This document shows, in pieces, positions 8,301 through 26,815 of a stretch of 64,000 nt of DNA (the stretch's first letter is position 1; the number at the start of each line of letters is the position of its first letter). The position numbers and the translations under genes were made by a program. The notes under the pieces are model-generated. The model searched no databases and was not told the origin of the DNA. It worked only from the letters and a program-made list of their open reading frames with translations. Origin of the DNA: Desulfurococcales archaeon (GTDB lineage: Archaea > Thermoproteota > Thermoprotei_A > Sulfolobales > WANQ01). The stretch is taken from positions 13,572 to 77,571 of the forward strand of contig JALVFK010000109.1 in the NCBI GenBank assembly GCA_027030065.1, given 5' to 3'.

Positions 8301-8311
8301 CACATTACGTT

Positions 8312-8764
8312 TTAACGTACACCATAGATCTCTACATAGAATAGCTCAGCACCAGAATCGGTTACGAGGTATGCTTCAATATAACCTCTAGCAATATCCT
8401 GGTCATCAATATATATGTTATAGGATGATACATCAAGCTCTATACGCTTAGCTTCGTTAGGATCAAATACAATGTTTACTGGAATAGTTGCATTCTTAAT
8501 CTTAATAGAGTAAACGGTTACAGGCTTATCATTAGGATTCTTAAAACCGCCAGTAATCTCAAGAAGCTTCCTAGTAGTCTCATTGTATAGTCCGTGAGGC
8601 ATAATAATAGATACTAAGTGATACTGTTGAGACCTAACAACACCAAAACTCACACCAGAAGCCATGAAGACAGCTATCAACAATATGGTTATCGCTAACA
8701 ATATCATGAATATAATACCAATAGTACTCATAACACCCTTCCTATTTCTCAAGGAGACCCTCAT
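8312..8764 (-). CDS. archaeal type IV pilin-like protein (class III signal peptide)
   Basis: The N-terminus MRVSLRNRKG|VMSTIGIIFMILLAITILLIAVF has a basic n-region, Lys-Gly, then a ~20-aa hydrophobic helix. It is a paralogue of the ORF at 8887-9363 (shared VRSQ/VKSQ, NPND/NPSD and RGYIE/RGYID blocks). Confidence 0.7.
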   Translation of the reverse strand: MRVSLRNRKGVMSTIGIIFMILLAITILLIAVFMASGVSFGVVRSQQYHLVSIIMPHGLYNETTRKLLEITGGFKNPNDKPVTVYSIKIKNATIPVNIVFDPNEAKRIELDVSSYNIYIDDQDIARGYIEAYLVTDSGAELFYVEIYGVR

Positions 8765-8830
8765 ATACTTCCCTCAAAGAGTTATCTAATACTACTCATA
8801 GATAAAAATGCAGAAGTATTTAAGACTAAC

Positions 8831-8857
8831 TAAAAATTAAGGATATTTTGTAAAAAA
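8831..8857 (-). terminator. oligo-T tracts downstream of the 158-aa pilin gene
   Basis: On the minus strand, T6 (8852-8857) and T5 (8832-8836) lie within 55 nt after the stop at 8887. Archaeal termination typically occurs at oligo-T. Confidence 0.3.
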
Positions 8858-8886
8858 GTTAATAGATTAATAAACCACGTATTATG

Positions 8887-9363
8887 TTAGCCTACTCCTA
8901 TTAGCTGTGCTGATGTTGATATTGTACCGGTTGTTGTTACTAATACTATGTCAATATATCCTCTGTATACATCATCCCACGTGACCGCTAAGGTATCTAA
9001 CGCTGGGTTAGTATTTCCTGCGTCAAGAGTTATCTCAGCCGTCTTCTTGGGTGCAACAACTGCTAGTGGATCACCCGTAGCGTTTTCAACTTTTGTGCCA
9101 GCAACGATTATAGCTGTAACATTTATCTCAGTGTCTGATGGGTTGTTTACTCTAAGGCTTAGAGATGTTAGCTTAAGACTGGTTTTATTGTAGAATGCTG
9201 CTGGTGTACCAACTATGTTTAGCTGGGCGCTCTGGCTCTTTACTGCTGATGTCGATATGTTGAAGGCTATGAATACTGCTAGGATTACTAGTATTATTGC
9301 TAGTAGCACTCCGAATATTACACCAAGGGGTGCAGATATACCTTTACGGACTTTCTTGGCCAT
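8887..9363 (-). CDS. archaeal type IV pilin-like protein (class III signal peptide), candidate major subunit
   Basis: The N-terminus is MAKKVRKG|ISAPLGVIFGVLLAIILVILAVFIAF. The gene has its own TATA-like element and a GGGTGG SD upstream, and oligo-T downstream. Confidence 0.75.
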   Translation of the reverse strand: MAKKVRKGISAPLGVIFGVLLAIILVILAVFIAFNISTSAVKSQSAQLNIVGTPAAFYNKTSLKLTSLSLRVNNPSDTEINVTAIIVAGTKVENATGDPLAVVAPKKTAEITLDAGNTNPALDTLAVTWDDVYRGYIDIVLVTTTGTISTSAQLIGVG

Positions 9364-9407
9364 AGCTTTCCCACCCTTTGAGGGTCATTTATCACTTAAA
9401 CTTAGGA

Positions 9408-9415
9408 GTATATAA
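9408..9415 (-). promoter_or_regulatory. TATA-like element upstream of the pilin gene
   Basis: The minus strand reads TTATATAC about 49 nt upstream of ATG 9363. An SD-like GGGTGG (9371-9376, minus strand) lies 8 nt before the ATG. Confidence 0.3.
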
Positions 9416-9609
9416 GTATATCTCTGTAGAAATCTGTATAATCGTAATTCTATAACTATATAATTTAGATAAAACATATGCTCTAATACGATTAGCTTAA
9501 GTAAGAGTAAGATCTTATATTTTAAATAGATATAAGAGAAAAATACCTTGTACAAAGATAATACTAAAAATAAAAAATATAATAATCATTTGATTATTTT
9601 TCAGTCCTA

Positions 9610-10653
9610 GTGTGCGAGATGAAAGAACCATACGTGAGTGTGATCATCGTAAACTACAATGGCTCGCGCCACCTGGAGGCGTTATTTAATTCCCTCCTAA
9701 AACAAGATTACTCTAACTTTGAAGTAATAGTTGTCGACAATCACTCTACTGATAATAGCATTAGAATACTTGAAAAATTTTACAAGATATTCGATAACCG
9801 TGGCATTGAATTCAAATACGTTGTTTTACGGAGGAATACTGGTTTTTGTTTAGGGAATAATATAGGATTCTTATATTCTTCTGCTAAGAGCAAGTATATC
9901 GTCTTATTGAATAATGATACTATTGTGGAGCGCTCTTGGCTTAGAGAGCTAGTAGCATTTATGGAGAAATACAGCGATGTCGCCGCTGCTTCCAGTTTAA
10001 TCTTATTTGATTTTACTAGTAGAATAGATAATACTGGTGGCCGCCTGGACATATATGGTGGATGTATTGGGCGTGGATTAATGGAGCACAAAAATGTAGC
10101 GGAGAAACATGATCCCTTTAAGGGTTTCTTTTATGCTAGTGGATGTTCAATGATTATACGGAGAAACGTGTTTGAGGAATTACATGGTTTTGACCCATGG
10201 CTATCAATGTATCATGACGATATAGATCTCTCATGGCAGGCAAGATTGCTAGGCTATAGGATAGGCTTCGTAAAGAACTCAATATGCCATCATATAAGAA
10301 GACCCGGGTTTGGAAGAAAACTACCCGTATGGAAGTTTTACTTAGCAAATAGAAATCGTATTAGAATAATAGTTAAAAACTATGAGCTAAGAAATATACT
10401 CCGCAGGATAATACCAGCAGTTATCATAACCTTTCTAGCTGGATTCTTCTTGAGCTTGATGAGTAGGAACGCCTACTATATCATGTATTCTCTCAAAACT
10501 GTAACATGGAATATACGGCACCTCAAAAACACGTTGACCTATAGAAGAATAATACAATCGAAGAGAAGAGTAAGGGACAAAGAGGTAGAGAAATATATGG
10601 ATAAGAAGCCTCTAGGAATATGGCACGCTAAAGCCTACCTTAAACTATTCTAA
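9610..10653 (+). CDS. family 2 glycosyltransferase
   Basis: 'VSVIIVNYNG...FEVIVVDNHSTDNS...LLNNDTIV' is a GT-A/GT2 N-terminal signature. GTG start at 9610 or ATG at 9619. Very AT-rich. Confidence 0.85.
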   Translation: MCEMKEPYVSVIIVNYNGSRHLEALFNSLLKQDYSNFEVIVVDNHSTDNSIRILEKFYKIFDNRGIEFKYVVLRRNTGFCLGNNIGFLYSSAKSKYIVLLNNDTIVERSWLRELVAFMEKYSDVAAASSLILFDFTSRIDNTGGRLDIYGGCIGRGLMEHKNVAEKHDPFKGFFYASGCSMIIRRNVFEELHGFDPWLSMYHDDIDLSWQARLLGYRIGFVKNSICHHIRRPGFGRKLPVWKFYLANRNRIRIIVKNYELRNILRRIIPAVIITFLAGFFLSLMSRNAYYIMYSLKTVTWNIRHLKNTLTYRRIIQSKRRVRDKEVEKYMDKKPLGIWHAKAYLKLF

Positions 10654-13334
10654 TTCCCTAGCTTTCTCCACTCAAACATCATAGGTAGGAGGAGAAGCAG
10701 AAGATATAATGTTAGTAAGACAGTCGAACCTACTACTACGTTATCGAATACTTTCTCATAGAGCCCGTAGACGTCTAGGTTTTTACCTATTATCCAGTAA
10801 CCATAGAGTAGAGACGTGAAACGTATTGTACCGTTAAATGTTACTATATTGAAAAGAGGATACGAGAACAAGTCACATACTTCCCTTGGCTCACACTTCA
10901 ATATGAGTTCCCGTATCCTTATCAAACCCTTACCAGAGACGACTAGTGTTGTATTGGGACAGTACTTTACCGAATCATTACACAATAGGCATGTTCTGGA
11001 ATTATTATGTGATATTAGTAGCTTATAACAACTAGTATTCACAACATCATGTAGCGTATTTAGCTTTATCTTACCTCTTATTTCTAGTTGCCGCAGTAGA
11101 AAGTTTAACTTAGCATTTATGTCAATAATTCTATGCGGGATCCTTTCTAGGCTTTCACGGGGTACCTCATATATTTTGAAGTATCCTATCTGCTTGAGTT
11201 CACTGTAACGTTCTCTTATAAACAACATTATTTTCGGCACATATTTTTGTTCTCTAAACACTAAGGTATTTAACACGAAATAATATCTACTACAATTCAT
11301 TGATAATAGAACTGAGACAACAATGCTCATATTGTCTTCGAAAGAAAATATGAAATTATAGAACATGTATAGTGGCTGGTTGTTTGTTGGAACGTATTGT
11401 AAGATATATCTATCTCTATTCGTGAAAGCAAATATGCATATACTGTTTCTATGCGGATTATTTTGATAGATTTTAGTAAAAAACTTAATCAACGATAACT
11501 CGTCGCTACTTAGCCTTTCTTCACTGTATACTTGTAGAGAACTATAAGTGGATACCACTACCGTTGCTAAGACTTGAACTACTATTAAGAACACTATAGC
11601 TATGTACCATAAATAATGTCTTCCTGTTCTAAGCCAGTTTACTAGGCTATCAAGACCCAACGATACAATAGGTGCTAAAAATAATAGTAGATACGGTATT
11701 AGCCTAAAAGCCCAGTAAATGAAATGAAAACTTATCATTAGTTTGAACACATTGAAGCTTCCTAGAGTAGCATAGTCTAGTAGATCTAGTAGCAGTATGA
11801 ATAATATTACCGCAAACACGTTTTTCAACGAAGCATTAATTATTCTCTGTTTAAACTTGTTGAAACTATTATACCTAGTGAAAGCATAGAATAATGGTAC
11901 TACGTAGAAGCCCAGATACCAGGGAATTTCAAATAAATTAACATACCTTAATGTTATATGCGATAACCTATAGAGAGGTAACGCACCATACAAATACTTG
12001 TTTATAAATATGAAAATAATAGATAAAGCTATAGCATAAATTATGAATTTACCTTTAAATACAATAACACTAATCTTATTCCAGAGAATCCTAATCAGCT
12101 GAAAAAGTATATGTGCTAATAACGATAAGACAGCTAATCCGAGTGTTAACAACAACAGTACCATATAATTAGTGTAAACTAATGTTAAACCGAGAAACCC
12201 GCTAATGGATAATATTATTATGTGTTCAAGTAGCTTTTTCCTATTATTAACCGTTACTCCGATAATTAGAGAATAAAGGATTAGCTGCGGAAAATATATT
12301 ATAGGCAATGTCAATGCATAGAGAAAACGCTCTACTTGACTTATCCTATCATATTGTTTTGAAAACAATAAGTATACTAGTGCTAAAAATATGAATAAGC
12401 CTATAATTTCTGGGTCGACTAGCTTAAACAAAACATAGTTGTAGAAGTAGCTATCCTCTACGCTGAGAGAACCTAGAAAACCATTTGATAACCTAGAAAG
12501 GAGGAATAGTATTGAACTAAAGCTACTAGCAAATACCCATAGATATAGGGAAATCATAGGCTTATCCGATAATCTCTTAAATAAAACATATATAGTAAAG
12601 ATGAGAAGTATGCTGAGTGGCGCCAACAAGTAGTAGAGGATCCCTATTCCCGGCTTGAAATATGCAATATGTAGTAAGAGAACGGCGAAACTATGATATC
12701 CTATGTAGGGGGTTTTCTCGTAGTCTAAAGGATTATAATATAATTCTTGAATATAGCGAAGATGCCGTGGATAATCAGAGAACGGCGTAGAGACTCCTAC
12801 AAGCGACGATATATATGAAATAATCCCCACGACCACTACTATAACGATAATTAATAATAGCTCGCTGACCTCGACCTTGTACTCTATTACATTACGACTA
12901 TTAGAGTCTTTAAGCATTATTATTGACAGCATGTATAGTACTGAGGCTATCGCTACCATGATTAAGGGGCTTGTAATATAACTAATAATTTCTGGATGGT
13001 TAATTCTCAATATTAATGTTGAAGCAATAATCAGTATTGATAATGTTATCCCAATAGACTCGATTATATTATTGAAACACTTTCTGCACAATATGTAAAC
13101 TGTGAGTAAAGTATAGGTTATGAATACAGCAGGTACTAGAAACCTTGCCGTAGATACCATAAAACTAATAAGATAAAGGCCTATGCTTGATACGAAGATG
13201 AGAGAATAAGAATACTTATTCAATTTAATACGGATTCTTTTATGACTAATATTCTTAGAACTTAGTATGAGTATTAAGCCTAGAATAAGTAAAAGCATTG
13301 ATAACAACATAACTGTAAGCGTCAATATTCTCAC
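10650..13334 (-). CDS. 894-aa polytopic membrane protein, possible GT-C-type glycosyltransferase or polymerase (function inferred only)
   Basis: At least 15 hydrophobic helices by eye over about 600 aa, then a ~250-aa non-hydrophobic region and a final TM. GTG start overlaps the upstream GT2 stop (GTGA). No AglB WWDYG motif seen. Confidence 0.6.
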   Translation of the reverse strand: MRILTLTVMLLSMLLLILGLILILSSKNISHKRIRIKLNKYSYSLIFVSSIGLYLISFMVSTARFLVPAVFITYTLLTVYILCRKCFNNIIESIGITLSILIIASTLILRINHPEIISYITSPLIMVAIASVLYMLSIIMLKDSNSRNVIEYKVEVSELLLIIVIVVVVGIISYISSLVGVSTPFSDYPRHLRYIQELYYNPLDYEKTPYIGYHSFAVLLLHIAYFKPGIGILYYLLAPLSILLIFTIYVLFKRLSDKPMISLYLWVFASSFSSILFLLSRLSNGFLGSLSVEDSYFYNYVLFKLVDPEIIGLFIFLALVYLLFSKQYDRISQVERFLYALTLPIIYFPQLILYSLIIGVTVNNRKKLLEHIIILSISGFLGLTLVYTNYMVLLLLTLGLAVLSLLAHILFQLIRILWNKISVIVFKGKFIIYAIALSIIFIFINKYLYGALPLYRLSHITLRYVNLFEIPWYLGFYVVPLFYAFTRYNSFNKFKQRIINASLKNVFAVILFILLLDLLDYATLGSFNVFKLMISFHFIYWAFRLIPYLLLFLAPIVSLGLDSLVNWLRTGRHYLWYIAIVFLIVVQVLATVVVSTYSSLQVYSEERLSSDELSLIKFFTKIYQNNPHRNSICIFAFTNRDRYILQYVPTNNQPLYMFYNFIFSFEDNMSIVVSVLLSMNCSRYYFVLNTLVFREQKYVPKIMLFIRERYSELKQIGYFKIYEVPRESLERIPHRIIDINAKLNFLLRQLEIRGKIKLNTLHDVVNTSCYKLLISHNNSRTCLLCNDSVKYCPNTTLVVSGKGLIRIRELILKCEPREVCDLFSYPLFNIVTFNGTIRFTSLLYGYWIIGKNLDVYGLYEKVFDNVVVGSTVLLTLYLLLLLLPMMFEWRKLGN

Positions 13335-14257
13335 TCCTTCTTATCCAGAGAAACAAGCCCTTGCATGTATTGTTTTAGTCTTGCTATAGCATAGAATACT
13401 AGGCCTAGAGCAACCATGAGTAATCCTACAGTAAATAGTATTAATACAGATGTTGTTAGAATAGGATCTATTATTCTCGTATCCTTGTAAACCAATAATA
13501 TACGTAGCATCATTATAAGTGATACTATAACGCTTACGAGACCAGGCAATCCCAATAGGAGGAGGGGATGACGTTCAGTAAACAATTGTATTATTCCGAC
13601 AATAAGTACAGCTAAGTGGTAGAGGGGATTGTGCTTACTGGCATCCTCGTGGGATGTTATGGTTATGGGTACCTCCTTTATCTTTAAGTTCTTATTTCTA
13701 GCTTTTGCCAGTATTTCCACACTTGCAGCCATCGTATTGTCTTCTGGTATAAGGTCTCCTACTACGCTAGCCCTATATGCTCTAAATCCGGATTGTGCAT
13801 CAGTTATCCCGTTTATATTAAATGCTGTTTTCACAGTTCGTGTTACCGCTTTCACACCTAGAATCCTCCATTTTGGCTGAGTTGTTTTTCCTAGAAAGCG
13901 TGATCCTATTACTATATCGGCTTCTCCCTTTACTATTGGCTCTACTAGTCTTGGTATTTCCTTTGGGTCATGTTGACCATCAGCATCTAGTGTTACTATT
14001 ATGTCTGGCTTTAGTTCTAGGGCTTTTTTGAAGAGTGTTCTTAGTGCTGCACCATATCCCTTGTTTTCATTGTGTTTTACTACTATTGCTCCTAGTTCTC
14101 TAGCTATTTCTGCTGTTAGGTCTCTTGACCCGTCGTCGCATACTATTATTTTGTCAACGTACTTCTTAGTCTCCACTATTACTTTTGCGATATATTTTTC
14201 CTCATTGTATGCTGGTATACATGCCACTATTACAGGCTTATCTTCCTTATACATCAA
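13331..14257 (-). CDS. family 2 glycosyltransferase, dolichyl-phosphate sugar synthase-like, with C-terminal TM helices
   Basis: 'VACIPAYNEEKYI...IIVCDDGSRDLT...TLDADGQHDP' are GT2/DPM1-like motifs. Two C-terminal hydrophobic helices follow. Confidence 0.85.
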   Translation of the reverse strand: MMYKEDKPVIVACIPAYNEEKYIAKVIVETKKYVDKIIVCDDGSRDLTAEIARELGAIVVKHNENKGYGAALRTLFKKALELKPDIIVTLDADGQHDPKEIPRLVEPIVKGEADIVIGSRFLGKTTQPKWRILGVKAVTRTVKTAFNINGITDAQSGFRAYRASVVGDLIPEDNTMAASVEILAKARNKNLKIKEVPITITSHEDASKHNPLYHLAVLIVGIIQLFTERHPLLLLGLPGLVSVIVSLIMMLRILLVYKDTRIIDPILTTSVLILFTVGLLMVALGLVFYAIARLKQYMQGLVSLDKKE

Positions 14258-14363
14258 TTCTATTTAACCCTAAGAATACAGTGCATAGATTTCCTTTATT
14301 TAATAACATTGTTTCGTCTTTAAAAACAAAATGTATTATGTGATAGAGGTATCTGAGAAAACC

Positions 14364-15848: not shown

Positions 15849-15853
15849 CTATT

Positions 15854-18286: not shown

Positions 18287-18458
18287 TAATCATACCCCTC
18301 CTTACCTAAGATAAGTTCCTAGCTAGAATAATTCGTCTTGCTAGTTACTAAAGAGTTTACCGCTAAAGACCAGTAATAATTGTATTTGAATGAAAATGTG
18401 GATTAGTAATTAAAATAATTGAATACAGGGTACACTAGTACTACAATAATAATACTTT

Positions 18459-20273: not shown

Positions 20274-20646
20274 GCCCGACCACCACTTGACTGTTTCCAG
20301 CCTTTATAACTACTCCCTCGGTGTTATAGGGTACGAGTGCCGCGAACCTTACCTCATCTCCTACTACTTGTTCAAATATTATCTTTTCTACTGGTTCTAT
20401 ACTGAGAGATGGTGGATTACCCTTGAGATATATTACTCCACTAACAATCCAGAATACATCATTTGTATCATTATCGCCATTGAGGTCAACCATTAAGGCG
20501 GTCTCATTTGCTAGATCTGTGTGTATATTAGCTACTGGTGGTGTTTGGAGACTTAAGGCTAAGTTCACGATGGTTAGGGATACAAGGACAGCTAATGCGA
20601 TTACTACTGGAATTGCTATTACTATGTCAAGAGAGATTGCAACCAA
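20257..20646 (-). CDS. small N-terminally anchored protein (pilin-like or FlaF/FlaG-like, uncertain)
   Basis: TTG start. 'MVAISLDIVIAIPVVIALAVLVSLTIV' is followed by a ~100-aa beta-rich region. It overlaps the platform gene start by 17 nt. Confidence 0.5.
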   Translation of the reverse strand: MVAISLDIVIAIPVVIALAVLVSLTIVNLALSLQTPPVANIHTDLANETALMVDLNGDNDTNDVFWIVSGVIYLKGNPPSLSIEPVEKIIFEQVVGDEVRFAALVPYNTEGVVIKAGNSQVVVGLGKGT

Positions 20647-20666
20647 GGATTCTCAACCCCAAGAGG

Positions 20667-20912
20667 TTATTTACCCATAGTATATAATACACGATAGGCT
20701 ATCCATACTAAGCCAGCTATACCTCCCCCTATGAGTATACCGGGTATAATACTATATGCTCTCAACGGGTAAAGAGCATAGGATAAAGCGAGTATAATTA
20801 TTCCTATTACGAATAAGTCTATGGGTTTTAGCTCTGGCTTCTTCTTACCCTCTTTTCGCCTCAGTATCTTTAGCTCCATTCCCCCCTCTTTCTTTTCGCC
20901 ACGTGTAGCCAC
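20667..20912 (-). CDS. small membrane protein (2 TM), first gene of the minus-strand filament operon
   Basis: 81 aa. A Lys-rich N-terminus is followed by two hydrophobic helices. GTG start. Confidence 0.5.
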   Translation of the reverse strand: MATRGEKKEGGMELKILRRKEGKKKPELKPIDLFVIGIIILALSYALYPLRAYSIIPGILIGGGIAGLVWIAYRVLYTMGK

Positions 20913-21044
20913 GTTCTACACCTGCACGAGTAAGGAGTAGTATATTATATTAACTAGTTGAAATACTATTTACCTTCACGTAGAACTTTTATTCCAGAGT
21001 AGTATAAATAGTTGTCCCAGGGGAGTAGAGAGGGAGAGAACAGT

Positions 21045-21302
21045 ATGGCAGCAACCTATGTAGTATACCTTGTATATTCTGGTCTCACAATACTCTTCTC
21101 CTTCGCAGTAGGCTATGGCTTCAAGATCCTAAAAGACGCACCAGTAAACGCGCCATCACTAGTAATAGCTGGCATAGGTATGGGACTCGTAGTTCTCGGA
21201 ATAGTAGCATACATAGATAAAATAATAAGTGGTATAACAGGATACATGAGACAACGTAAACTTAAGAAAATCCTAGGACCAGCTGAAGAGGAGGAACTAT
21301 GA
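21045..21302 (+). CDS. small membrane protein (2 TM)
   Basis: ATG at 21045 (MAATYVVYLVY...) is preceded by GGAGTAGAGAGGGAGAG. The ORF track uses TTG at 21012. The stop overlaps the next ATG (ATGA). Confidence 0.55.
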   Translation: MAATYVVYLVYSGLTILFSFAVGYGFKILKDAPVNAPSLVIAGIGMGLVVLGIVAYIDKIISGITGYMRQRKLKKILGPAEEEEL

Positions 21303-21793
21303 TCCGGATAAGAAAAGCTGTAAGCTTTATAGGAACAATCGTGGTAGCGTTAGGTGCATTAATAGCTGCTACTGTAGCTGCAATCATAATAACAACCCTA
21401 TTTAATGCCATGAGTACCCAACCCTACATTACGGCTGGCGATGCATACTATACCAATGCGACAAATTTTACACAACTACACGTACTATTCTACAATGTCG
21501 GTAAGGGAGGAGCATACTTCCAATACATGTACATTTATATTCCAACAAACATTAGCGGTACAATAAAGACAACTATAGCTAAAGTGCTCGTCACGGGAGA
21601 AGTCATAAACAATACAAGCGGCGCAGTAATAGGTTTTGCAAAATTTACACCAAGTATAGCAATCCAGCCTCAGGGAGTACTCGAAATGGTCATACAGGTA
21701 AACAATCTTAACGCCAATACAACAGCTACTAAGATCCTAGGTATAGCTGTATTTGATAAAGACTCGGTTGTCGTGACCTTTGACAAGATATAA
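21299..21793 (+). CDS. archaeal type IV pilin-like protein (class III signal peptide)
   Basis: N-terminus MIRIRKA|VSFIGTIVVALGALIAATVAAIIITTLF. 164 aa. Confidence 0.7.
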   Translation: MIRIRKAVSFIGTIVVALGALIAATVAAIIITTLFNAMSTQPYITAGDAYYTNATNFTQLHVLFYNVGKGGAYFQYMYIYIPTNISGTIKTTIAKVLVTGEVINNTSGAVIGFAKFTPSIAIQPQGVLEMVIQVNNLNANTTATKILGIAVFDKDSVVVTFDKI

Positions 21794-21925
21794 CCATAAT
21801 ATAGTATTGTGGATCCTAGCTTCTCGTTTCTCTAGTAGGAGGTTAAATATTAATAAATCCGCATAACAATATTTATGTATAAGTCGGCTAGGCTATACTA
21901 GAGAGTAGAAGAGGTGTTCAACAGA

Positions 21926-24277
21926 ATGTCTTTTCTAAGAAAAAAGACTAGGCGTGGTATCACATTTATAGGTGCAGTTATAATAGCAGTAGCCTTCCTC
22001 ATAGCCATAATGCTCGCAATTTCATGGATCCTAAGCTCTCAGAGAGCATACTTTACAAAACCCAACATGGTGACCGAGAAAGCTGAAGCCTATGGCGGAG
22101 GTAATACCCTTTGGCTAGAAATAAAGAACTATGGTATAAGTATCGCCACTTTAAAGGAAATATACGTTTATGATACTGAAGCAGGCAAATACTACATAGC
22201 ATATCCTAATGGAACAATAATAGACCCGGCGAAGAGAACAGCTGTTGGTACGGCTGAGATAAAGCCTCTTTCAGCAAGCGAGGGCGAATACATATATGCA
22301 AAACTAATATTCAATGCAGGTGTATTGCAAGGAAACCTTATAACAGGTGTAGCAGTATTCGATAAATCCCTTGCACCATGGAAGCTCTACAGAATACATC
22401 CGCCAGTCACACAACCAGGGTATGCTGTCAACGCGTGGAGAGTCAAGCTCTTCATATTCAATCCATCAGATTTAACAATATTCACTGATAACGCAAGCCA
22501 GTTTCTAGCTGGAACAATAACAAAGAAACCAATAGCAGTAATAACAATAACAAAGAACACACCTTTTGCCGGACACTTCTTCAACTGGAGCTGTGGGCTA
22601 GCAAGAGCCTACGGATGGACCCCAGGAAGCGATGTTGTATTCAGTGATGCTTATCGGAACACCATACTACCATTCTATCGTTACTATTTCAATTGTACAA
22701 GTAAGGTAGCGGTGTTTATAGTGTATCTGAAGAATACTACACTTTTCCCCAGACAAACATATCCAATATACATGTGGTATGCCCCATATGTAGTAGGTGG
22801 TGGAACAGTAACGATAACAGATCACAGCAATTTATCAGTATACTATATGGCGGTTAACAATAGCTTCCAGGACTTCTTCCGACAACAACCAGCTTGGGAC
22901 TATGATAATGGGTTAAGATCAAGGATCGCATGGATAAGAGACTATACAGCAAGCCAGCAAATGGATCCTATATACGACTATGAGGGTGAGGACGAAGATC
23001 TAAATGTAACCTCTTACGCGGACTGGCAATGGGATGGAAGCGATCATATCTACTGTACACAAGATCCAGCCGACGGAGACGTACAATGCTCCCTAACATA
23101 TCTTAACATGACGGACGGCTTCTTCGAAAGATTTCAAGGAGGAGGCAACTGGTACTACTACAAGTATCCAGAAGGCTATACATGGCTATTTGAAGTAGCA
23201 TTCAATATGACCCACAAACCACCACAAGCACCATTCAATCAAACCTATATAACAGCAATGACAACGGAGTTACACTACTTCTATGGTTGGTGGCTTGGAA
23301 GATGGTGGAGATATAGGGCATGGTATGGATGGGTCTCTAAGACTTTTGGTGCTACAGCAGCAAACTGGGCAATAATAATCTCTACAAGACGGCTTGACAA
23401 TCTAGTTCCACCGGACTACTATGTTATGCAACTCAAGAATGTAGAAGGAATAATACTTATTAACACGAGTATAACAGTTTATTGGAGATCGCCGGACTAT
23501 GCTTCAGAGACAAGTAGGCAGAACCTAGCCCTAACACCTAACTCGAGCGTGACGGTAACGGTATATAATGATACGACTACTGGTGTAGTAAGACTTATAG
23601 TTCAAACCGATATCCGGACCTATAACTTTGTATTGTATCCAAGTAATAGTAACTACGCTTTCAGAGTATTACTCATAAATACTACTGGCGGATACATAAA
23701 GTTGTTCGTAAACGCATGGACTGATGGAAGCGGCTACGGAGTATACTACGATGACTATGATTATCCCGCGCTTGGAAGAGAACTAATACCAAGCAGAACA
23801 GTTAGAGCATACTATATATGGCCTAGATACTTCGCAGTATGGTGGATAGCGTCAAAATGGAAAGACACTGATTCTACAATATGGGTTGGAAGAGAACTTG
23901 AAGCAACACTACAGACAAGAGACTTAACAAAACTAAACTTCAGCAAAATGCAGAGAATGGTATATAGCTTTACAAGTGGAGCAGACCTAGTCGGCACACA
24001 GTTCGTATGGATGGGTATAGCTAGTGAAGGAAACAGCATAGACGATGACGTAGGTAATCCACCACCACTCCAGTTCATAACAGCAGAAGCCAGCGGAGCC
24101 TATGGTGATGAACTAATAGAAGGAAACACTGTTACATTCATGGCAGTGGATACATGTTGGGATGATGACTATGGAACTAATTACTACTTAGTACAAGTAG
24201 ATTGGGCTAGAGTAATAATAGGATTAGGATACATATGGTGGGAAGGCCCAGTACTAGACCAATGGCCCTGGACCTAA
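21926..24277 (+). CDS. giant pilin-like protein: class III signal plus pilin module plus a ~620-aa Trp/Tyr-rich extension
   Basis: ATG at 21926 lies 9 nt after a GAGGTG SD (the track's GTG at 21914 sits inside the SD). The N-terminus is MSFLRKKTRRG|ITFIGAVIIAVAFLIAIMLAI. The first ~165 aa parallel the 164-aa pilin (e.g. ITGVAVFDKSL vs ILGIAVFDKDS). Confidence 0.75.
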   Translation: MSFLRKKTRRGITFIGAVIIAVAFLIAIMLAISWILSSQRAYFTKPNMVTEKAEAYGGGNTLWLEIKNYGISIATLKEIYVYDTEAGKYYIAYPNGTIIDPAKRTAVGTAEIKPLSASEGEYIYAKLIFNAGVLQGNLITGVAVFDKSLAPWKLYRIHPPVTQPGYAVNAWRVKLFIFNPSDLTIFTDNASQFLAGTITKKPIAVITITKNTPFAGHFFNWSCGLARAYGWTPGSDVVFSDAYRNTILPFYRYYFNCTSKVAVFIVYLKNTTLFPRQTYPIYMWYAPYVVGGGTVTITDHSNLSVYYMAVNNSFQDFFRQQPAWDYDNGLRSRIAWIRDYTASQQMDPIYDYEGEDEDLNVTSYADWQWDGSDHIYCTQDPADGDVQCSLTYLNMTDGFFERFQGGGNWYYYKYPEGYTWLFEVAFNMTHKPPQAPFNQTYITAMTTELHYFYGWWLGRWWRYRAWYGWVSKTFGATAANWAIIISTRRLDNLVPPDYYVMQLKNVEGIILINTSITVYWRSPDYASETSRQNLALTPNSSVTVTVYNDTTTGVVRLIVQTDIRTYNFVLYPSNSNYAFRVLLINTTGGYIKLFVNAWTDGSGYGVYYDDYDYPALGRELIPSRTVRAYYIWPRYFAVWWIASKWKDTDSTIWVGRELEATLQTRDLTKLNFSKMQRMVYSFTSGADLVGTQFVWMGIASEGNSIDDDVGNPPPLQFITAEASGAYGDELIEGNTVTFMAVDTCWDDDYGTNYYLVQVDWARVIIGLGYIWWEGPVLDQWPWT

Positions 24278-24306
24278 AGTTATCAGAAATCTTTTATCTT
24301 AGTCCT

Positions 24307-25521
24307 CTATCTTTTTCTCTTTATGACTAAGATTAATATTCCCGCTATAATTACTACAACCAGTATTAACCAATAGTTAAACTCACTACTCTTTATTGTC
24401 GTAGTAGTTATTGTAGATTTGTTAACTACTATTGTCGTGGTAGTATTCTGTACTTTTGTTATTATTTGCCCTCTACTCCTATGTACAATTATACTGAGGG
24501 TTCTCTCTGGTGTCTCAGAATATACTCTCTTCCCAGAAACCATTACTAACTTAAACGTGTATGTCCCGTTCTGCCATCCGTTTACTGGAATATAACGATA
24601 CTTGTACTCTGCTCTACCCTGGGATAATACTGGTATAGTAGCTATAGTTACATTCTCTAAGAAACTCCCATTATAGTTCACTACCAATACTATGCTGACA
24701 TTGTTAACTGGTTTATAGACATTTTTTACTACTCCTATCACTTCTGCAAACACTATATTGTTGTCCTTATAATATGGTAATATGTCAAAATAGTCAAACC
24801 ATATAGTTGAAACCGTTAAAAACACTTTTTCTGTCTCGTTTTCTTCTATTACAACTTTTTCTTCAGCGAGTAATTCTCCAGCTAGAGTTGCTTTAACGAT
24901 ATATTTACCCGGCGGTAATGATATGTTAATGTAACCAGTCTTGTTTGTTACAACAGTATATTCACCTTTTGGAGTTATTCTAAGCACTCTTACCTCAGTA
25001 ATAACATGATTCCCTTCTTTATCTACTGTCTCTACTACTAGCCTACCAGTAGGCCCTACTATTCTTATTGTTGTTCTCTGACCAGCTCCTGGTACAAGTA
25101 TAACCTTACCCTCTACAGTCTTCATCATAATATTCGCGTAGACTTTTATCTCGTACTCGCCGGGTATAGCGTTGGGAAGCGCCTTAATCTTAATATATAC
25201 TATCTTATGCTCTCCAGGCAACAAGGTTACATTTCGATGCGAAAATATTATTTCTATGAAGTCTGGTGCTTCGTATCCTAAACTCACGTTTACGGGCTTA
25301 CTCGCTGTATTAATTACGGCTATGTATATGTCCCTTCCCTCAATAGTAGTATTGGGGGCTAGTACATACTCGTATTTGTAAAATGATCCAGTTATAGCTA
25401 TTCTCGATGATTCAGATTCAGCATAACTTATCGAAAGAGATGTTAGTGAGACAAATACTGCAATAATCAATAATATTACAAATAGTAACCTGGTACTATA
25501 AACTGTGTTCACGATAAACAC
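24307..25521 (-). CDS. secreted, C-terminally anchored surface protein (beta-sandwich repeats)
   Basis: Signal peptide, CARDB/NEW3-like and CarboxypepD_reg-like segments ('GRLVVETVDKEGNHV...PPGKYIVKATLAG'), a Thr-rich stalk, a TM helix and a KRKR tail. Confidence 0.7.
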   Translation of the reverse strand: MFIVNTVYSTRLLFVILLIIAVFVSLTSLSISYAESESSRIAITGSFYKYEYVLAPNTTIEGRDIYIAVINTASKPVNVSLGYEAPDFIEIIFSHRNVTLLPGEHKIVYIKIKALPNAIPGEYEIKVYANIMMKTVEGKVILVPGAGQRTTIRIVGPTGRLVVETVDKEGNHVITEVRVLRITPKGEYTVVTNKTGYINISLPPGKYIVKATLAGELLAEEKVVIEENETEKVFLTVSTIWFDYFDILPYYKDNNIVFAEVIGVVKNVYKPVNNVSIVLVVNYNGSFLENVTIATIPVLSQGRAEYKYRYIPVNGWQNGTYTFKLVMVSGKRVYSETPERTLSIIVHRSRGQIITKVQNTTTTIVVNKSTITTTTIKSSEFNYWLILVVVIIAGILILVIKRKR

Positions 25522-25590
25522 CAGAGATAAGATATCTATGTGGGGTGTGGGGATTTTTCCAGAGTAAAAAAGAAATTACTATTTAGGAGA

Positions 25591-26610
25591 TTAGCCATTG
25601 ATTATTTGATAGTAGATTGCACCCGTATACGTTCCTGGCATTAGACCGTTGCCTAGCTGAACCCATGAGTACAATGATAGGGTGGCACCTGATTCACTCG
25701 TAGGTCCGGGATCGCTTGAGTGACCTGGTATTGTTTGATAGATATCAGTTACTAGTAGTGAATCAGTTTCGTCTAATAAGTTGTCATCGTCTGTTATTAG
25801 CTGGAATTCACCATCATTTAGAGTACCATCTGTGTCAAGTAAAGCTGTATACCCAGTCGTCGTATTCCATTGTGGGTCAGCCTTTGTTTGAACCGCATAG
25901 TTTCCATTAGCTATTAGTGTTAAGTTGTATGGATTCTCTTGTGCCGGTGTAGCTGCTGCACCTGGATCAAGGTTTCCGAAGTCTATTGTTGTTACATCAA
26001 TACTTATCTCACCGTACCATAGCATCGTTAATCCATACATTGAGGCCGTGTATGTGTTTCCACTGGAATCTGTTACTTCAACTATTATATCCCAGTCATC
26101 GGATGCGTCCGTATTTGCTTCATGGGCCACCTTACCTGGTATAAAGTGAAGCCACCAGTCGCCTTGTGTCGCCGTTAGGTCTGATGGAGCTTTGCTGCTA
26201 GCAGTATTTATACCCCAAGTGCTACCAGTAGGCCCTATTAGTTGCCAACCATTTGTTGGATCCCATTGATATGTGGCCCTTGTTGCTGGATCATCGGTTG
26301 CCGGCGGGGTACCTACAACCGTGTTATTTGTGTCATAGAATAGTATTACTTTTATCTGTGCAACATCTTGTAGGCTATTAGAGTCCGAAATAGTTATCTT
26401 TAGAGCATATTCCAGCTGTGGTGAAAGCGTTGTCGTTGTTGTTGTTTCATCACTTTCATATAATGCTATATTTATAGTCGGGGCGACATTATTTACTGTG
26501 TATTGTCCGGTAGCAGATGTTTCTGCACCATTAACATTTAGTATTGGTATTATTGATGCAAACAATAAAACTACTAACAATAACGCACTCTTACTTTTAC
26601 CTATTCCCAC
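25591..26610 (-). CDS. secreted beta-rich protein, possible fibre or adhesin subunit
   Basis: GTG at 26610 gives MGIGKSKSALLLVVLLFASIIPILNVNGA|E, with an upstream GGAGTGGGGTG SD. The track start at 26694 adds 28 non-signal residues. The protein ends with '...PGTYTGAIYYQIING'. Confidence 0.65.
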   Translation of the reverse strand: MGIGKSKSALLLVVLLFASIIPILNVNGAETSATGQYTVNNVAPTINIALYESDETTTTTTLSPQLEYALKITISDSNSLQDVAQIKVILFYDTNNTVVGTPPATDDPATRATYQWDPTNGWQLIGPTGSTWGINTASSKAPSDLTATQGDWWLHFIPGKVAHEANTDASDDWDIIVEVTDSSGNTYTASMYGLTMLWYGEISIDVTTIDFGNLDPGAAATPAQENPYNLTLIANGNYAVQTKADPQWNTTTGYTALLDTDGTLNDGEFQLITDDDNLLDETDSLLVTDIYQTIPGHSSDPGPTSESGATLSLYSWVQLGNGLMPGTYTGAIYYQIING

Positions 26611-26815
26611 AGCTAGCGCACCCCACTCCCATATAAAGAGATCATATATAAAAACTTTTATACAGTTATAACTGATAAAATAATTATTTAACATTATCTA
26701 ATTTAACAGATTAATATACATAATAGAGAGTTAGTATTTCTAACTGTACACGAAAGCAACTGTAGTTTATTCTATTAAGATAACCTACACTAGTATACTA
26801 AAATATTAGATAAGA

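Follow-up and report, generated by a model that had tools for sequence, protein, structure and literature searches.

A MAG-Only Type IV Filament Locus of Uncultured Desulfurococcales, Probably Encoding an Adhesive, Aap-like Pilus

Introduction

Does the gene cluster at positions 8312–26694 of the 64-kb stretch of DNA analyzed here (the window) specify a new kind of archaeal surface filament, or a variant of a known one? A previous sequence-only reading had described it as a type IV filament locus with a non-standard accessory gene set. Such loci have been catalogued extensively. Makarova et al. 2016 (PMC4858521, main text and Table S1) listed many type IV pili-associated arCOGs of "surface", "secreted" and "membrane" proteins, described three to four untraceable extra components in Desulfurococcales subclade 4A, and argued that many genes in the loci of Sulfolobales and Desulfurococcales "could be dispensable". 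Ig-rich adhesin-like or S-layer-like proteins, which help filaments cross the S-layer, have been described in archaeal type IV filament loci, as have pilin-like proteins without class III motifs and accessory genes downstream of the platform gene (Sivabalasarma & Albers 2026, bioRxiv 10.64898/2026.04.22.720090). Since comparable surface, secreted, membrane and Ig-rich proteins are already on record in these two studies, "non-standard" overstates the novelty of the accessory set.

Results

Layout and Core Machinery

When the ORFs of the window were checked, all were recovered at the coordinates originally reported (Table 1). The spacing given for the tightly packed minus-strand block was also correct: the start of the 894-aa gene overlaps the end of GT2_308 by 4 nt (13331–13334), followed by a 106-nt gap (14258–14363), a 5-nt gap between the ATPase and 810-aa genes, a 172-nt gap (18287–18458), a 17-nt overlap between the platform and tm129 genes, and a 20-nt gap.

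Table 1. Features of the locus and its surroundings, in window coordinates. The arrow marks the end of the class III leader.
Feature	Coordinates	Strand	Basis
pilA150, class III pilin MRVSLRNRKG↓VMSTIG...	8312..8764	-	FlaFind-like match; pilB158 paralogue
pilB158, class III pilin MAKKVRKG↓ISAPLG..., AapB-like "PilA family"	8887..9363	-	FlaFind-like match
GT2_347, soluble-type family 2 glycosyltransferase	9610..10653	+	Pfam GT2 3.1e-27; convergent with block
894-aa polytopic membrane protein, ~15–20 TM and C-terminal soluble part	10650..13334	-	TM count; strain-specific
GT2_308, polyprenyl-phosphate sugar synthase type (AglJ/PpgS/ArnC-like), 2 C-terminal TM helices	13331..14257	-	Pfam GT2 1.4e-29
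Secretion ATPase, FlaI/PilB/VirB11 superfamily, 494 aa	14364..15848	-	Pfam T2SSE 1.1e-18
810-aa surface glycoprotein	15854..18286	-	Topology, sequons, AF2, orthologues
172-nt intergenic spacer	18287..18458	.	Alignment of spacer from 7 loci
Platform protein, FlaJ/TadC/PilC type, 604 aa	18459..20273	-	TM count; T2SSF via family members
tm129, single-pass membrane protein, β-rich ectodomain	20257..20646	-	5-orthologue alignment
tm81, small 2-TM membrane protein	20667..20912	-	First gene of minus-strand core unit
Divergent intergenic region, two core transcription units	20913..21045	.	AT-rich TATA-like boxes on both sides
tm96, small 2-TM membrane protein	21012..21302	+	First gene of plus-strand unit
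pilC164, small class III pilin MIRIRKA↓VSFIGT...	21299..21793	+	FlaFind-like match; kept in all related loci
pilD783, modular pilin with class III signal	21926..24277	+	FlaFind-like match; AF2; Foldseek
404-aa anchored surface glycoprotein: signal peptide, Thr-rich stalk, C-terminal TM	24307..25521	-	Variable slot
367-aa secreted Thr/Asp-rich protein	25591..26694	-	Variable slot shared with 404-aa protein
Two-domain KaiC-family ATPase	28771..30168	+	Pfam KaiC 1.3e-86; just outside interval 8312–26694

The ATPase has the motifs GMMTGKT, IIEDTPEL, GEVRG and GHGG, with Walker A, Walker B and His-box intact, in agreement with its previous assignment to the FlaI/PilB type. Matches in the PDB include GspE2 (2oap, 5.9e-36) and FlaI (4ii7, 1.6e-33), and the best NCBIfam match is FlaI at 157 bits (cut-off 550), with BasE at 129 bits (cut-off 1000). 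Its nearest relatives are 100, 88, 79 and 43% identical, the last being that of a sister locus (L001), followed by sequences at ≤39%. The platform protein is polytopic, with at least nine TM segments and two cytoplasmic domains. Although it has no Pfam or NCBIfam match of its own, 4 of the 11 aligned members of its family match Pfam T2SSF (best E 2.2e-6), and the family profile aligned to a Sulfolobus T2SSF protein with an hhalign probability of 82% (E 1e-5), which bears out the PilC/TadC/FlaJ-like call. Only 11 homologues were found in 5.8e9 proteins (53–98% identity). Together with the pilins described below, these results confirm that this is a type IV filament locus: its ATPase is intact, its platform is of the FlaJ/TadC type, and its class III pilins belong to two families.

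The two core transcription units diverge from a region with TATA-like boxes, read directly from the sequence as tatattatatta at 20942–20953 and tataaata at 21004–21011, which may act as promoters. The 172-nt spacer, aligned from seven loci, has a conserved TATA-like box, a motif GGTAAACTCTTTAGTAAC and a AGGAGGGG box ahead of the GTG start, and may provide the 810-aa gene, the ATPase and the GT2 gene with an internal promoter and a 5' leader.

Class III Signals and Pilins

Every six-frame ORF of at least 60 aa, including every alternative start, was scanned across the window for a FlaFind-like pattern ([KR][GA], then 20 or more hydrophobic residues in a run free of charges). Exactly four real ORFs matched (pilA150, pilB158, pilC164 and pilD783), and these are the four for which prepilin N-termini had been claimed. 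All lie within 16 kb of the 64 kb, adjoining the ATPase and platform genes, and this confinement shows that the pattern is not due to chance. Also in agreement with the sequence-only reading, none of the window's polytopic ORFs was recognisable as a prepilin peptidase of the A24 family. The scan returned a fifth match, ORF 3835–4053, which is spurious and runs antisense to the helicase gene.

The orthologues of pilC164 share the motif G/A↓[VI]SF[IA]GT. With a sequon density of 3.7 per 100 aa, pilC164 is a candidate for the major or core pilin. A profile of the pilC/D family matched the archaellins 5o4u (5.6e-4) and 5z1l (1.5e-3), while no pilin of the locus had a Pfam archaellin match. The other two small pilins are paralogues (34% identity, 6e-26), and the profile of their family matched S. 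acidocaldarius AapB (PDB 8q30, 1.7e-6; PMC11178815), 8fk7 (1.5e-4) and 9myg (0.029). Both were present in only two contigs, L002 and L003, and absent from the locus neighbourhood in other lineages, pilB158 occupying a strain-specific position inside the glycosylation island. The two pilin families are related to each other (hhalign probability 84.5%).

The modular pilin pilD783 consists of a class III signal, a pilin module (approximately residues 1–155) and an orphan, aromatic-rich domain of ~620 aa (18.6% W+Y+F). In the AF2 model, residues 1–155 form a helix (4–44) and a β-sandwich with pLDDT 70–92; beyond residue 155 pLDDT drops to about 30, leaving the C-terminal domain without a usable model. 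Foldseek matched the pilin module best to FlaG (5tuh_B, target-normalised TM-score 0.80), the P. calidifontis pilin 8fk7 and FlaF. An exhaustive phmmer search of 1.84e9 representatives returned five matches, only two of which covered the C-terminal domain. In L009 and L010 the N-terminal module alone is conserved, the C-terminal domain being swapped between lineages, and L010 has a large insertion in pilC (426 aa) and a short pilD (155 aa), indicative of module swapping. Position, composition and variability make pilD783 a candidate tip adhesin.

The 810-aa Protein and the Small Membrane Proteins

The 810-aa protein has a Sec signal peptide, ~5–6 β-sandwich domains, a Thr/Asn-rich stalk (23 sequons), a C-terminal TM helix and a basic tail. 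Its AF2 model, made from a 7-sequence MSA, is all-β and multidomain (mean pLDDT 60, pTM 0.37), and Foldseek matched it only to generic Ig/MG-domain arrays in the PDB, with a TM-score of about 0.1. Only seven homologues were found in 5.8e9 proteins; the orthologues (33–98% identity) occupy the identical position in all loci that reach the gene. Surface proteins of the locus carry 2–3.7 sequons per 100 aa, compared to about 0.3 in cytoplasmic proteins.

All three small membrane proteins are conserved. The orthologues of tm96, 43–92% identical, occupy the corresponding position in every related locus, and their N-termini indicate that translation probably begins at the ATG at 21046, giving 85 aa. 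In tm81, the C-terminal motif ALYP.R...IPG.LIGGG.AGL.W is kept in all related loci. Neither protein had a Pfam or NCBIfam match. The N-terminus of tm129 is leaderless (M↓VAIS[IL][ED]M.IA.PV), the start codon immediately preceding the hydrophobic helix in all five aligned orthologues, and comparison of tm129 with both pilin profiles and with the PDB revealed no similarity. The sister locus L001 encodes a 119-aa positional analogue upstream of its platform gene.

Conserved Core and Variable Flank

Comparison of 13 related contigs, six of which carry the same species, separated a conserved core that keeps both its genes and their order, tm96–pilC164–pilD783 divergent from tm81–tm129–platform–810-aa protein–ATPase(–GT2_308), from a strain-specific flank consisting of pilA150/pilB158, GT2_347, the 894-aa protein and the 404-aa and 367-aa proteins. 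(The contigs compared were L002–L004, L008–L014 and L017–L020; of the core, L003 and L004 include no more than the ATPase and the end of the 810-aa gene.) Both large proteins proposed as locus members, the anchored 810-aa protein and the pilin-fused pilD783, were conserved in each related locus that extends far enough to include them. Across lineages, identity was 74–89% for the ATPase, 54–81% for the platform and 33–55% for the 810-aa protein, and the C-terminal domain of pilD was replaced, a gradient of divergence as expected from cell-surface exposure. In L001 the order is pilin, leaderless TM protein, platform, a protein with signal peptide, Thr-stalk and TM helix, pilin, ATPase. A neighbourhood matching that of the window locus turned up only in MAGs and metagenomes of uncultured organisms, all carriers being MAGs, so far of deep-sea-vent Desulfurococcales/Pyrodictiaceae, and never in a characterised system.

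The glycosylation genes fared differently. The minus-strand block had been credited with three of them, forming a dedicated GT2/GT2/polytopic module. GT2_308 is one: it matched NCBIfam AglJ (1.6e-34), PpgS (1.6e-33) and Dol-P hexose transferase (9e-27), none of these reaching its equivalog cut-off, and an orthologue (72% identity) directly follows the ATPase in L008 and L014. GT2_347 lies outside the block, on the opposite strand. The 894-aa protein had no Pfam, NCBIfam or PDB similarity and no glycosyltransferase signature; its coupling to the Dol-P-sugar synthase, a matter of context alone, suggests that it is possibly a GT-C type transferase. Both genes were found in the same-species contigs L002 and L003 only and GT2_308 alone is kept in the next lineage, so the module is not a dedicated part of the system.

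The 404-aa and 367-aa genes are likewise confined to same-species contigs, and both proteins are outside the conserved system. The 404-aa protein was found in L002 only and is missing in L011 (platform 97% identical), where pilD abuts a 141-aa gene; the 367-aa protein had no Pfam, NCBIfam or PDB match.

The statement that ArlC/D/E/H/X-like ORFs were lacking holds for ArlX and ArlCDE and must be qualified for ArlH. ArlH belongs to the KaiC family, and a KaiC-family ATPase, scoring 92.6 bits against NCBIfam ArlH (cut-off 215), is encoded just outside the interval. It is syntenic with the locus in four lineages, with orthologues of 60–94% identity 2–8 kb from pilD in L008, L009 and L011, and is a possible regulator. 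KaiC association with type IV pilus loci has been described before (PMC4858521, PMC10334743).

Discussion

We consider it probable that the locus encodes an adhesive, Aap-like (non-archaellar) type IV pilus specific to a small group of uncultured Desulfurococcales/Pyrodictiaceae. The label "Aap-like" refers to the pilins only; the ATPase plays no part in it. A PibD-type peptidase encoded elsewhere would remove the short basic leaders, and the platform, driven by the ATPase, would pull pilins out of the membrane and assemble them into a polymer. The shaft would be formed by pilC164, with the AapB-like pilA150 and pilB158 also supplied in trans in this strain. Modular pilins of bacteria sit at the tip as adhesins, and pilD783 would take that place here as an adhesin with a lineage-swappable C-terminal domain, since this bulky, aromatic-rich domain cannot fit in the shaft. 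After export by Sec, the 810-aa protein would stay anchored in the membrane through its C-terminal helix, with its glycosylated Thr-rich stalk lifting it outward. It would most likely act at the envelope, where it might make a local opening in the S-layer for the filament, brace the S-layer there, or else serve as a second adhesin. The small proteins tm81, tm96 and leaderless tm129 would be membrane subunits of the base. GT2_308 would make a dolichol-phosphate sugar that is used outside the cell to glycosylate surface proteins, and in this strain the 894-aa protein probably uses that donor.

Alternatively, the ATPase and platform might build only a short envelope pseudopilus, presenting pilD783 or its replacements for substrate or mineral capture in the manner of a bindosome, the 810-aa protein then serving as a scaffold in the envelope. 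In being a class III protein whose ectodomain is very large, pilD783 recalls the binding proteins that BasEF assembles (bioRxiv 10.64898/2026.04.22.720090), a Bas-like Sulfolobus sp. locus (L021) has a ~514-aa protein after its platform gene, and a ~500-aa secreted protein is known from the bindosome locus (PMC4858521). We nevertheless consider this unlikely. The ATPase stays below the BasE cut-off, pilD783 has no substrate-binding-protein domain in Pfam or NCBIfam and no adjoining ABC transporter, and the presence of the small, conserved pilC164 together with AapB-like pilins fits a true filament.

A Ups-like pilus for glycan-dependent, species-specific aggregation, with the 810-aa protein as UpsX counterpart and the two paralogous pilins, pilA150 and pilB158, as UpsA and UpsB, is quite unlikely. 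The multi-β-sandwich protein and ATPase genes do mirror upsX–upsE, and UpsX is a multi-Ig protein with "several Ig folds" (bioRxiv 10.64898/2026.04.22.720090), so the claim that no UpsX-like ORF is present is untenable at the level of architecture, which is the level of this likeness. Glycosyltransferases and a Hel308-type helicase (3752–5977) lie nearby, as in the Ups neighbourhood (same source). However, the platform gene is upstream of the ATPase here, not downstream, and L008 and L014 show no synteny for the helicase, for pilA/B or for most glycosyltransferases. Hel308 is a housekeeping gene. The annotated ORFs included no endonuclease III or ParB-like nuclease, the best match of the pilin profile was AapB, with no Ups pilin among the PDB matches, and subsystem 4I is reported to be exclusive to Sulfolobales (bioRxiv 10.64898/2026.04.22.720090).

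It is very unlikely that only the ATPase, platform and pilins belong together and that the 810-aa protein, small TM proteins and glycosyltransferases are unrelated neighbours kept by recent common ancestry. Carriers of the full synteny all fall in one narrow lineage, the outer genes are not conserved, and many genes of such loci may be dispensable (PMC4858521), but the 810-aa gene stays between the platform and ATPase genes while diverging to 33%, tm129 overlaps the platform gene, and in L001, despite its distant ATPase, the platform gene is still preceded by one for a leaderless TM protein and followed by one for an anchored Thr-stalk protein. An archaellum-like or "flagellar-like" filament, with archaellin/FlaF/FlaG-like pilC and pilD, a stator-like tm129 and the nearby KaiC replacing ArlH, would account for the archaellin, FlaG, FlaF and P. 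calidifontis flagellar-like pilin matches, the FlaI match of the ATPase and a syntenic KaiC as in the P. calidifontis locus (PMC10334743), but is close to negligible, given FlaI and ArlH scores below cut-off, no ArlX, ArlCDE or Pfam archaellin match, a tm129 without resemblance to pilin profiles or the PDB, a gene order unlike that of arl operons, and an Ig-like fold that is common to all archaeal pilins, archaellins and FlaF/FlaG (COG3430, "FlaG/FlaF/PilA family").

For the Aap-like pilus that we favour, there are precedents: Ig-rich surface proteins, large class III proteins, motif-less pilin-like proteins, a nearby KaiC and glycosylation genes are all already known from archaeal type IV filament loci. 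The locus is a family-level variant of a type of archaeal machine that is already well catalogued, and does not amount to a new kind of system. What is new is a rare family, found only in MAGs, in which the usual ATPase, platform and pilins go together with several orphan proteins of the surface and membrane.

Class III Signals and Organization of the Locus

The 64-kb window was searched with a FlaFind-like scan ([KR][GA], then an uncharged stretch of at least 20 hydrophobic residues) of all six-frame ORFs of at least 60 aa, using every alternative start. Exactly four real ORFs were returned, the same four to which the sequence-only reading had assigned class III (prepilin-type) signals; these are listed below as pilA150, pilB158, pilC164 and pilD783. 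Each has a class III signal followed by an N-terminal hydrophobic helix; an Ig-like β-sandwich, likewise generic for archaeal type IV filament subunits, is indicated by the model of the pilD783 N-terminal module and by the fold and profile matches to archaeal pilins, archaellins, FlaF and FlaG described below. The sole further match was a spurious ORF, antisense to the helicase gene. The ORF coordinates and the gap and overlap lengths of the sequence-only reading were reproduced; its placement of three glycosylation genes in the minus-strand block was corrected, as GT2_347 lies on the plus strand.

Features of the window and of related loci (coordinates are those of the window unless a locus is named)
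Feature	Position	Strand	Observation
Hel308/Hjm-type helicase	3752-5977	-	DEAD, Helicase_C, archaeal helicase domain 4 and HHH_5; 2.3 kb from pilA150
Strain-specific glycan island	6091-14257		Encloses pilA150 and pilB158
NeuD/PglB-type sugar acetyltransferase	6091-6837		In glycan island
Orphan 248-aa polytopic membrane protein	7554-8300		In glycan island
pilA150	8312-8764		Class III ORF, FlaFind-like scan: MRVSLRNRKG/VMSTIG
pilB158	8887-9363		Class III ORF, FlaFind-like scan: MAKKVRKG/ISAPLG
GT2_347	9610-10653	+	In glycan island
ATPase	14364-15848		T2SSE
Spacer, platform gene to 810-aa gene	18287-18458		172 nt
pilC164	21299-21793		Class III ORF, FlaFind-like scan: MIRIRKA/VSFIGT
pilD783	21926-24277		Class III ORF, FlaFind-like scan: MSFLRKKTRRG/ITFIGA
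Slot between pilD and the 141-aa gene	24307-26694		Two surface/secreted proteins (404 and 367 aa)
141-aa protein	26816-27241		
Metallo-β-lactamase-fold protein	27300-28202		
Two-domain KaiC-family ATPase	28771-30168	+	Just outside the interval of the sequence-only reading
Polytopic ORF	32590-33228		No A24 match
1261-aa GH57 protein	35443-39228	+	Signal peptide, GH57 glycoside hydrolase domain, 35 sequons, C-terminal TM segments
Decarboxylase cluster	41079-45492		Carboxyltransferase with oxaloacetate-decarboxylase β and γ subunits
Sister locus L001, layout			Pilin, leaderless 119-aa TM protein, platform, 197-aa protein (signal peptide, Thr-rich stalk, TM anchor), pilins, ATPase
Sister locus L001, following genes	9928-13799 (L001)		Two Ser/Thr protein kinases (one with an FHA domain), zinc-ribbon and FHA proteins
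Same slot in L008	3264-5796 (L008)		Four small, unrelated ORFs; three or more begin with a signal or TM segment
Same slot in L011	5707-6010 (L011)		Empty

The core genes lie close together or overlap. They form two units, tm96–pilC164–pilD783 in one direction and tm81–tm129–platform–810-aa protein–ATPase in the other, separated by an AT-rich region with TATA-like boxes on both sides. Called mechanically, the tm96 ORF begins at a TTG at 21012; the N-termini of orthologues and a TATA-like box at 21004–21011 point to an ATG at 21046, giving the 85-aa protein called in the same-species contig L002. Within the second unit, the spacer that separates the 810-aa gene from the platform gene contains a TATA-like box and the motif GGTAAACTCTTTAGTAAC, which is kept between lineages whose flanking proteins share only 55–81% identity; the spacer may be an internal promoter or a leader element. 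Neither Rfam families nor tRNAs were detected in the window.

Examination of the window's polytopic ORFs revealed no A24 prepilin peptidase (PibD/FlaK/EppA), in agreement with the sequence-only reading. The 248-aa protein, the polytopic ORF downstream of the KaiC gene and others gave no A24 match, and the 212-aa candidate among them had no GxGD motif. Since the prepilin peptidase is usually encoded elsewhere, its absence does not exclude that the locus encodes a type IV filament.

The ATPase and Platform Protein

The ATPase matched Pfam T2SSE with an E-value of 1.1e-18 and, in a PDB sequence search, the solved structures of GspE2 (5.9e-36) and FlaI (1.6e-33). Its Walker A, Walker B and His-box motifs are intact, as in the FlaI/PilB/VirB11 family of ATPases. 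In a database of 5.8e9 proteins, its relatives fell at 100, 88, 79 and 43% identity, followed by none above 39%. One homologue, P0148 / P0003 (79% identical), carries an insertion of about 457 aa placed exactly in the His box (GHGGL/CLPED...LTHN/TTFHAE). Because of this position and the presence of LAGLIDADG-type motifs (LFLADGSM, GFWDGDGT), the insertion is an intein, missing from the window ATPase.

The 604-aa platform protein, which has at least nine TM segments, yielded no Pfam or NCBIfam match alone, and its identification as a FlaJ/TadC/PilC-type (T2SSF) platform comes from its family. Four of the 11 aligned family sequences match T2SSF (PF00482; best E-value 2.2e-6), and with hhalign the family profile could be aligned to a Sulfolobus platform protein over its T2SSF region (probability 82%). 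A PDB sequence search with the profile found nothing. The same 5.8e9-protein database contained 11 relatives, at 53–98% identity.

The Pilin Families and the Modular pilD783

The four class III proteins fall into two families, which are themselves related (hhalign probability 84.5%). The first comprises pilA150 and pilB158, paralogues with 34% identity. A profile of this family, built with pilins from L001, L005 and L006, matched AapB, the solved subunit of the Aap pilus (8q30; E-value 1.7e-6). The single pilB158 sequence found nothing in a PDB sequence search, so the relation to AapB holds at the family level only. The second family comprises pilC164 and the N-terminus of pilD783 (24% identity, 1e-8), and a joint pilC/pilD profile matches archaellins (5.6e-4).

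An AF2 model of pilD783, made from a six-sequence MSA, was confident over residues 1–155 (pLDDT 70–92), which are predicted to form a long N-terminal helix and a β-sandwich. Its best PDB matches were S. acidocaldarius FlaG (TM-score 0.80 on target), a flagellar-like pilin of P. calidifontis, and FlaF. For the C-terminal ≈620 residues, of which 18.6% are aromatic, AF2 gave no usable model (pLDDT about 30). An exhaustive HMMER search of 1.84e9 representatives returned five relatives, only two of which reach past the pilin module. In related loci the C-terminal domain is replaced (L009) or absent (L010), and in L010 it is pilC that bears an insertion of about 260 aa, making the large domain a mobile cassette on a pilin scaffold.

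The layout of pilD783, a pilin module joined to a large domain, is that of the bacterial modular (bimodular) pilins, such as Streptococcus sanguinis PilB and PilC. These consist of a full pilin module fused to a big functional domain, which is thought to be located at the filament tip and to be adhesive (PMC8179133, PMC9934059); in S. sanguinis, modular pilins carrying adhesive domains are well established. However, pilD783 comes from another domain of life and has an archaeal Ig-like pilin fold instead of the bacterial α/β fold, and its C-terminal domain is an orphan without a recognisable vWA or lectin fold. Orphan domains of this kind are candidate adhesive domains for minerals or glycans at very high temperature.

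The 810-aa Protein and the Small Membrane Proteins

The 810-aa protein begins with a Sec signal peptide and ends in a TM helix followed by a basic tail. A Thr/Asn-rich stalk contains many of its 23 sequons (N-glycosylation sites), and sequon density is high in the surface proteins generally. The body was predicted to be all-β and multidomain, and the model returned only generic Ig/MG-domain arrays with Foldseek. Seven relatives were found in the 5.8e9-protein database.

Among the small membrane proteins, tm81 and tm96 are conserved and have two TM segments, and tm129 is single-pass. The gene for tm129 overlaps the platform gene, and its start codon lies immediately before a conserved hydrophobic helix (M/VAISIEMLIALPV), in which about position +6 is acidic. 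Only this helix would make tm129 a leaderless pilin, a reading that profile comparison did not support, as the tm129 profile was unlike either pilin family; a PDB sequence search with the profile also found nothing. No Pfam or NCBIfam match was obtained for the 810-aa, 783-aa, 894-aa, tm81, tm96, tm129, 404-aa and 367-aa proteins, nor did the 367-aa protein find anything in a PDB sequence search.

In architecture and position, the 810-aa protein is comparable to the S-layer-like multi-Ig proteins of archaellum loci in Methanococcales (arCOG05057) and Thermococcales, which have been proposed to prime or locally remodel the S-layer for passage of the filament (bioRxiv 10.64898/2026.04.22.720090). 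Yet the 810-aa protein belongs to another filament system and lineage and has no detected sequence similarity to the arCOG05057-type proteins, and the function is hypothetical in both cases.

Comparison with Known Archaeal Filaments

The machinery might be a bindosome-like one, displaying large class III proteins such as pilD783. This is less likely. The ATPase is 30% identical to that of a Sulfolobus sp. with an apparently Bas-like locus. In view of an NCBIfam BasE score of 129.2 bits against a cut-off of 1000, the ATPase does not qualify as a BasE orthologue and the locus is not the bindosome. Nor does pilD783 have a substrate-binding-protein domain (Pfam, NCBIfam) or an adjoining ABC transporter.

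Another reading is an Ups-like aggregation pilus. In common with the upsX-upsE-upsF-upsA-upsB system, the locus has a pair of paralogous pilins, genes for glycosyltransferases and a helicase close by, and a multi-β-sandwich protein encoded immediately upstream of the ATPase; the likeness to UpsX, which has been described as a multi-Ig protein (bioRxiv 10.64898/2026.04.22.720090), is at the level of architecture. However, the platform gene lies upstream of the ATPase gene here and downstream in Ups, the 810-aa protein is equipped with a Sec signal and C-terminal anchoring, and relatives do not conserve the helicase and glycosyltransferase genes of the flank, making this reading less likely as well. 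The helicase may simply be a housekeeping Hel308; together with the glycosyltransferases it recalls the surroundings of the Sulfolobales ups operon, and it is not syntenic in L008 and L014.

An archaellum-like filament, to which the archaellin match of the pilC/pilD profile might point, is again less likely. The NCBIfam FlaI equivalog scored 157.4 bits on the ATPase (cut-off 550), short of ArlI orthology, and ArlH scored 92.6 bits (cut-off 215) on the nearby KaiC-family protein. No locus ORF had a Pfam or NCBIfam match to the stator proteins ArlF/ArlG or to ArlH, ArlX or ArlCDE. Because of these scores and absences, the locus is not an archaellum.

The Aap pilus of Sulfolobales (aapA/aapB, aapE, aapF, aapX) resembles the locus in the family-level match of pilA150/pilB158 to AapB/AapA-type pilins. 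Aap pilins may be encoded apart from the machinery genes (PMC11178815). The same is possible for the window locus, and the pilins are glycosylated in Aap and, as predicted, here. In contrast to Aap, where the ATPase and platform genes are adjacent, here they are split by the gene for the 810-aa surface protein, and the locus adds tm81, tm96, tm129, pilC and the modular pilD. Aap assembly requires AapX, which has an Fe-S/FAD domain or is membrane-anchored. As the sequence-only reading had indicated, there is no AapX-like ORF: no protein with an Fe-S or FAD domain was found in the locus by Pfam or NCBIfam.

Conservation of the Core and Its Relatives

A scan of one genome per GTDB species identified four loci, all in MAGs labelled Thermoprotei, Desulfurococcales or Pyrodictiaceae archaeon, and a scan of JGI metagenomes identified four more. 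Several contig names suggest an origin in deep-sea vent-deposit studies. In the orthologue table of the fetched contigs, the core genes had the same order and orientation in each locus reaching them; of the core, L003 and L004 contain just the ATPase gene and the last part of the 810-aa gene. The sequence-only reading had treated the accessory genes as one system. The conserved core of that set is real, but about half of the set is strain-specific flank, since only part of the genes recurs in related loci. A bare three-gene core amid unrelated neighbours, as the variable flank might suggest, is less likely given this conserved order.

Divergence rises with exposure. The ATPase is 74–89% identical between loci, the platform protein 54–81% and the 810-aa protein 33–55%, and the C-terminal domain of pilD is replaced. 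For the accessory proteins, no sequence relatives could be detected beyond their own family.

An ATPase of intermediate identity (43%) is present only in the sister locus L001, which has other accessory proteins in the same layout. The next ATPase clade (L005, L015) has ATPases of 465 aa with 35–39% identity in a conserved six-gene locus. Among its products are a ≈485-aa protein that opens with a pilin-like helix and a ≈647-aa protein bearing a signal peptide and C-terminal anchor. No sequence similarity between the L005 and L015 accessory proteins and those of the window was found by phmmer, and the resemblance is architectural only. The layouts of L001 and L005/L015 suggest a recurrent theme, in which a core is accompanied by a large pilin-like protein and an anchored surface protein, with the proteins themselves replaced from clade to clade. 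The kinase and FHA genes following L001 resemble the Arn network that regulates the Sulfolobus archaellum.

Glycosylation Genes and the Strain-Specific Flank

GT2_308, the gene after that of the ATPase, is also found after the ATPase in Pyrodictiaceae MAGs (72% identity). Its best NCBIfam scores, to AglJ, PpgS, Dol-P hexose transferase and ArnC, mark it as being of the polyprenyl-phosphate sugar synthase type. The 894-aa protein, with about 15–20 TM segments, is encoded by a gene overlapping the end of GT2_308 by 4 nt. It had been counted among the glycosylation-type genes; no glycosyltransferase similarity was detected in Pfam or NCBIfam, and a PDB sequence search was empty. A putative GT-C transferase is a reasonable guess.

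The pilA150, pilB158, GT2_347, 894-aa, 404-aa and 367-aa genes were found only in same-species contigs (L002, L003). The glycan island enclosing the two pilins further holds GT2_347, the 894-aa protein and GT2_308. In the slot beyond pilD, the content differs between loci. The 404-aa and 367-aa genes are missing from L011, where pilD abuts the 141-aa gene and the platform protein is 97% identical.

On the far side of this slot, the 141-aa, metallo-β-lactamase-fold and KaiC-family proteins are syntenic with the locus in L008, L009 and L011, at 60–94% identity. KaiC-type ATPases have been linked to archaeal type IV pilus loci (PMC4858521), and a regulatory role in such pili has been proposed for them. 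Further downstream, the GH57 protein is probably a surface-anchored enzyme of the amylopullulanase type, and the decarboxylase genes form a membrane Na+-translocating decarboxylase cluster unrelated to the pilus locus.

Discussion

The locus is a coherent and conserved system, and the finding stands as real. It is best read as encoding an adhesive, non-archaellar type IV pilus, in support of which are the exposure-graded divergence, the sequon density, the tight spacing of the core genes and the AT-rich intergenic region with its TATA-like boxes. In such a pilus, the prepilins would be cleaved by a peptidase encoded elsewhere, and the ATPase and platform protein would polymerise pilC164 and, in this strain, probably also the AapB-like pilA and pilB. 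Since its bulky domain cannot pack in the shaft, pilD783 would cap the filament as a tip adhesin. The anchored 810-aa protein would act at the envelope, the small TM proteins would belong to the base, and GT2_308 would supply a lipid-linked sugar for extracellular glycosylation.

Lineage-specific type IV filament loci that evolve fast are well documented in archaea, and this locus fits the pattern. Compared by description, it shares features with the clade 4 loci of Thermoproteota, especially subclade 4A, which are lineage-specific, diverge fast and have extra secreted, surface or membrane components. Subclade 4A loci of Desulfurococcales have three to four extra components of untraceable origin, and the table of Makarova et al. 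ties many "surface", "secreted" and "membrane" arCOGs to type IV pili (PMC4858521). The 4A accessory arCOGs, which include arCOG10615, arCOG08837 and arCOG10426, are listed mostly in Desulfurococcaceae (Desulfurococcus, Staphylothermus, Thermogladius and Thermosphaera), and cultured Pyrodictiaceae have a single protein each of only two, arCOG03511 and arCOG12314 (PMC4858521). Also described are accessory genes that follow the platform gene, adhesin-like or S-layer-like proteins rich in Ig domains and proposed to help the filament cross the S-layer, pilin-like proteins without a class III motif, and widespread large class III proteins (bioRxiv 10.64898/2026.04.22.720090). Thus, of the "non-standard" accessory features of the sequence-only reading, each type is already published (PMC4858521; bioRxiv 10.64898/2026.04.22.720090), but the proteins themselves are sequence orphans. 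As a further difference from the 4A loci, they have no detectable relatives beyond their own family. The ATPase is at most 39% identical to anything outside its family, apart from the one sister locus (43%).

A bolder proposal, which we consider improbable, is that the conserved non-core genes (810-aa, tm129, tm81 and tm96) constitute an undescribed envelope module obligatory for assembly, such as a gate in the S-layer or pseudoperiplasm, or a stator, for a pilus whose giant tip domain can be exchanged between the pilC and pilD scaffolds. If true, vent-chimney archaea would have a modular adhesion organelle that can be re-targeted, without counterpart among studied archaeal pili.

With only uncultured carriers and an overall pattern that has been documented before, the proposed adhesive-pilus locus has limited practical value. 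Two questions still open in the field are how archaeal filaments pass through the S-layer and by what route simple type IV machines gain new functions. The locus is a compact, conserved example bearing on both, with the gene for an Ig-rich anchored protein between the platform and ATPase genes and a pilin scaffold with a swappable giant domain. It adds to these systems a family from Pyrodictiaceae-like vent archaea; the cultured Pyrodictiaceae are almost without the listed 4A accessory components in the 2016 census table.
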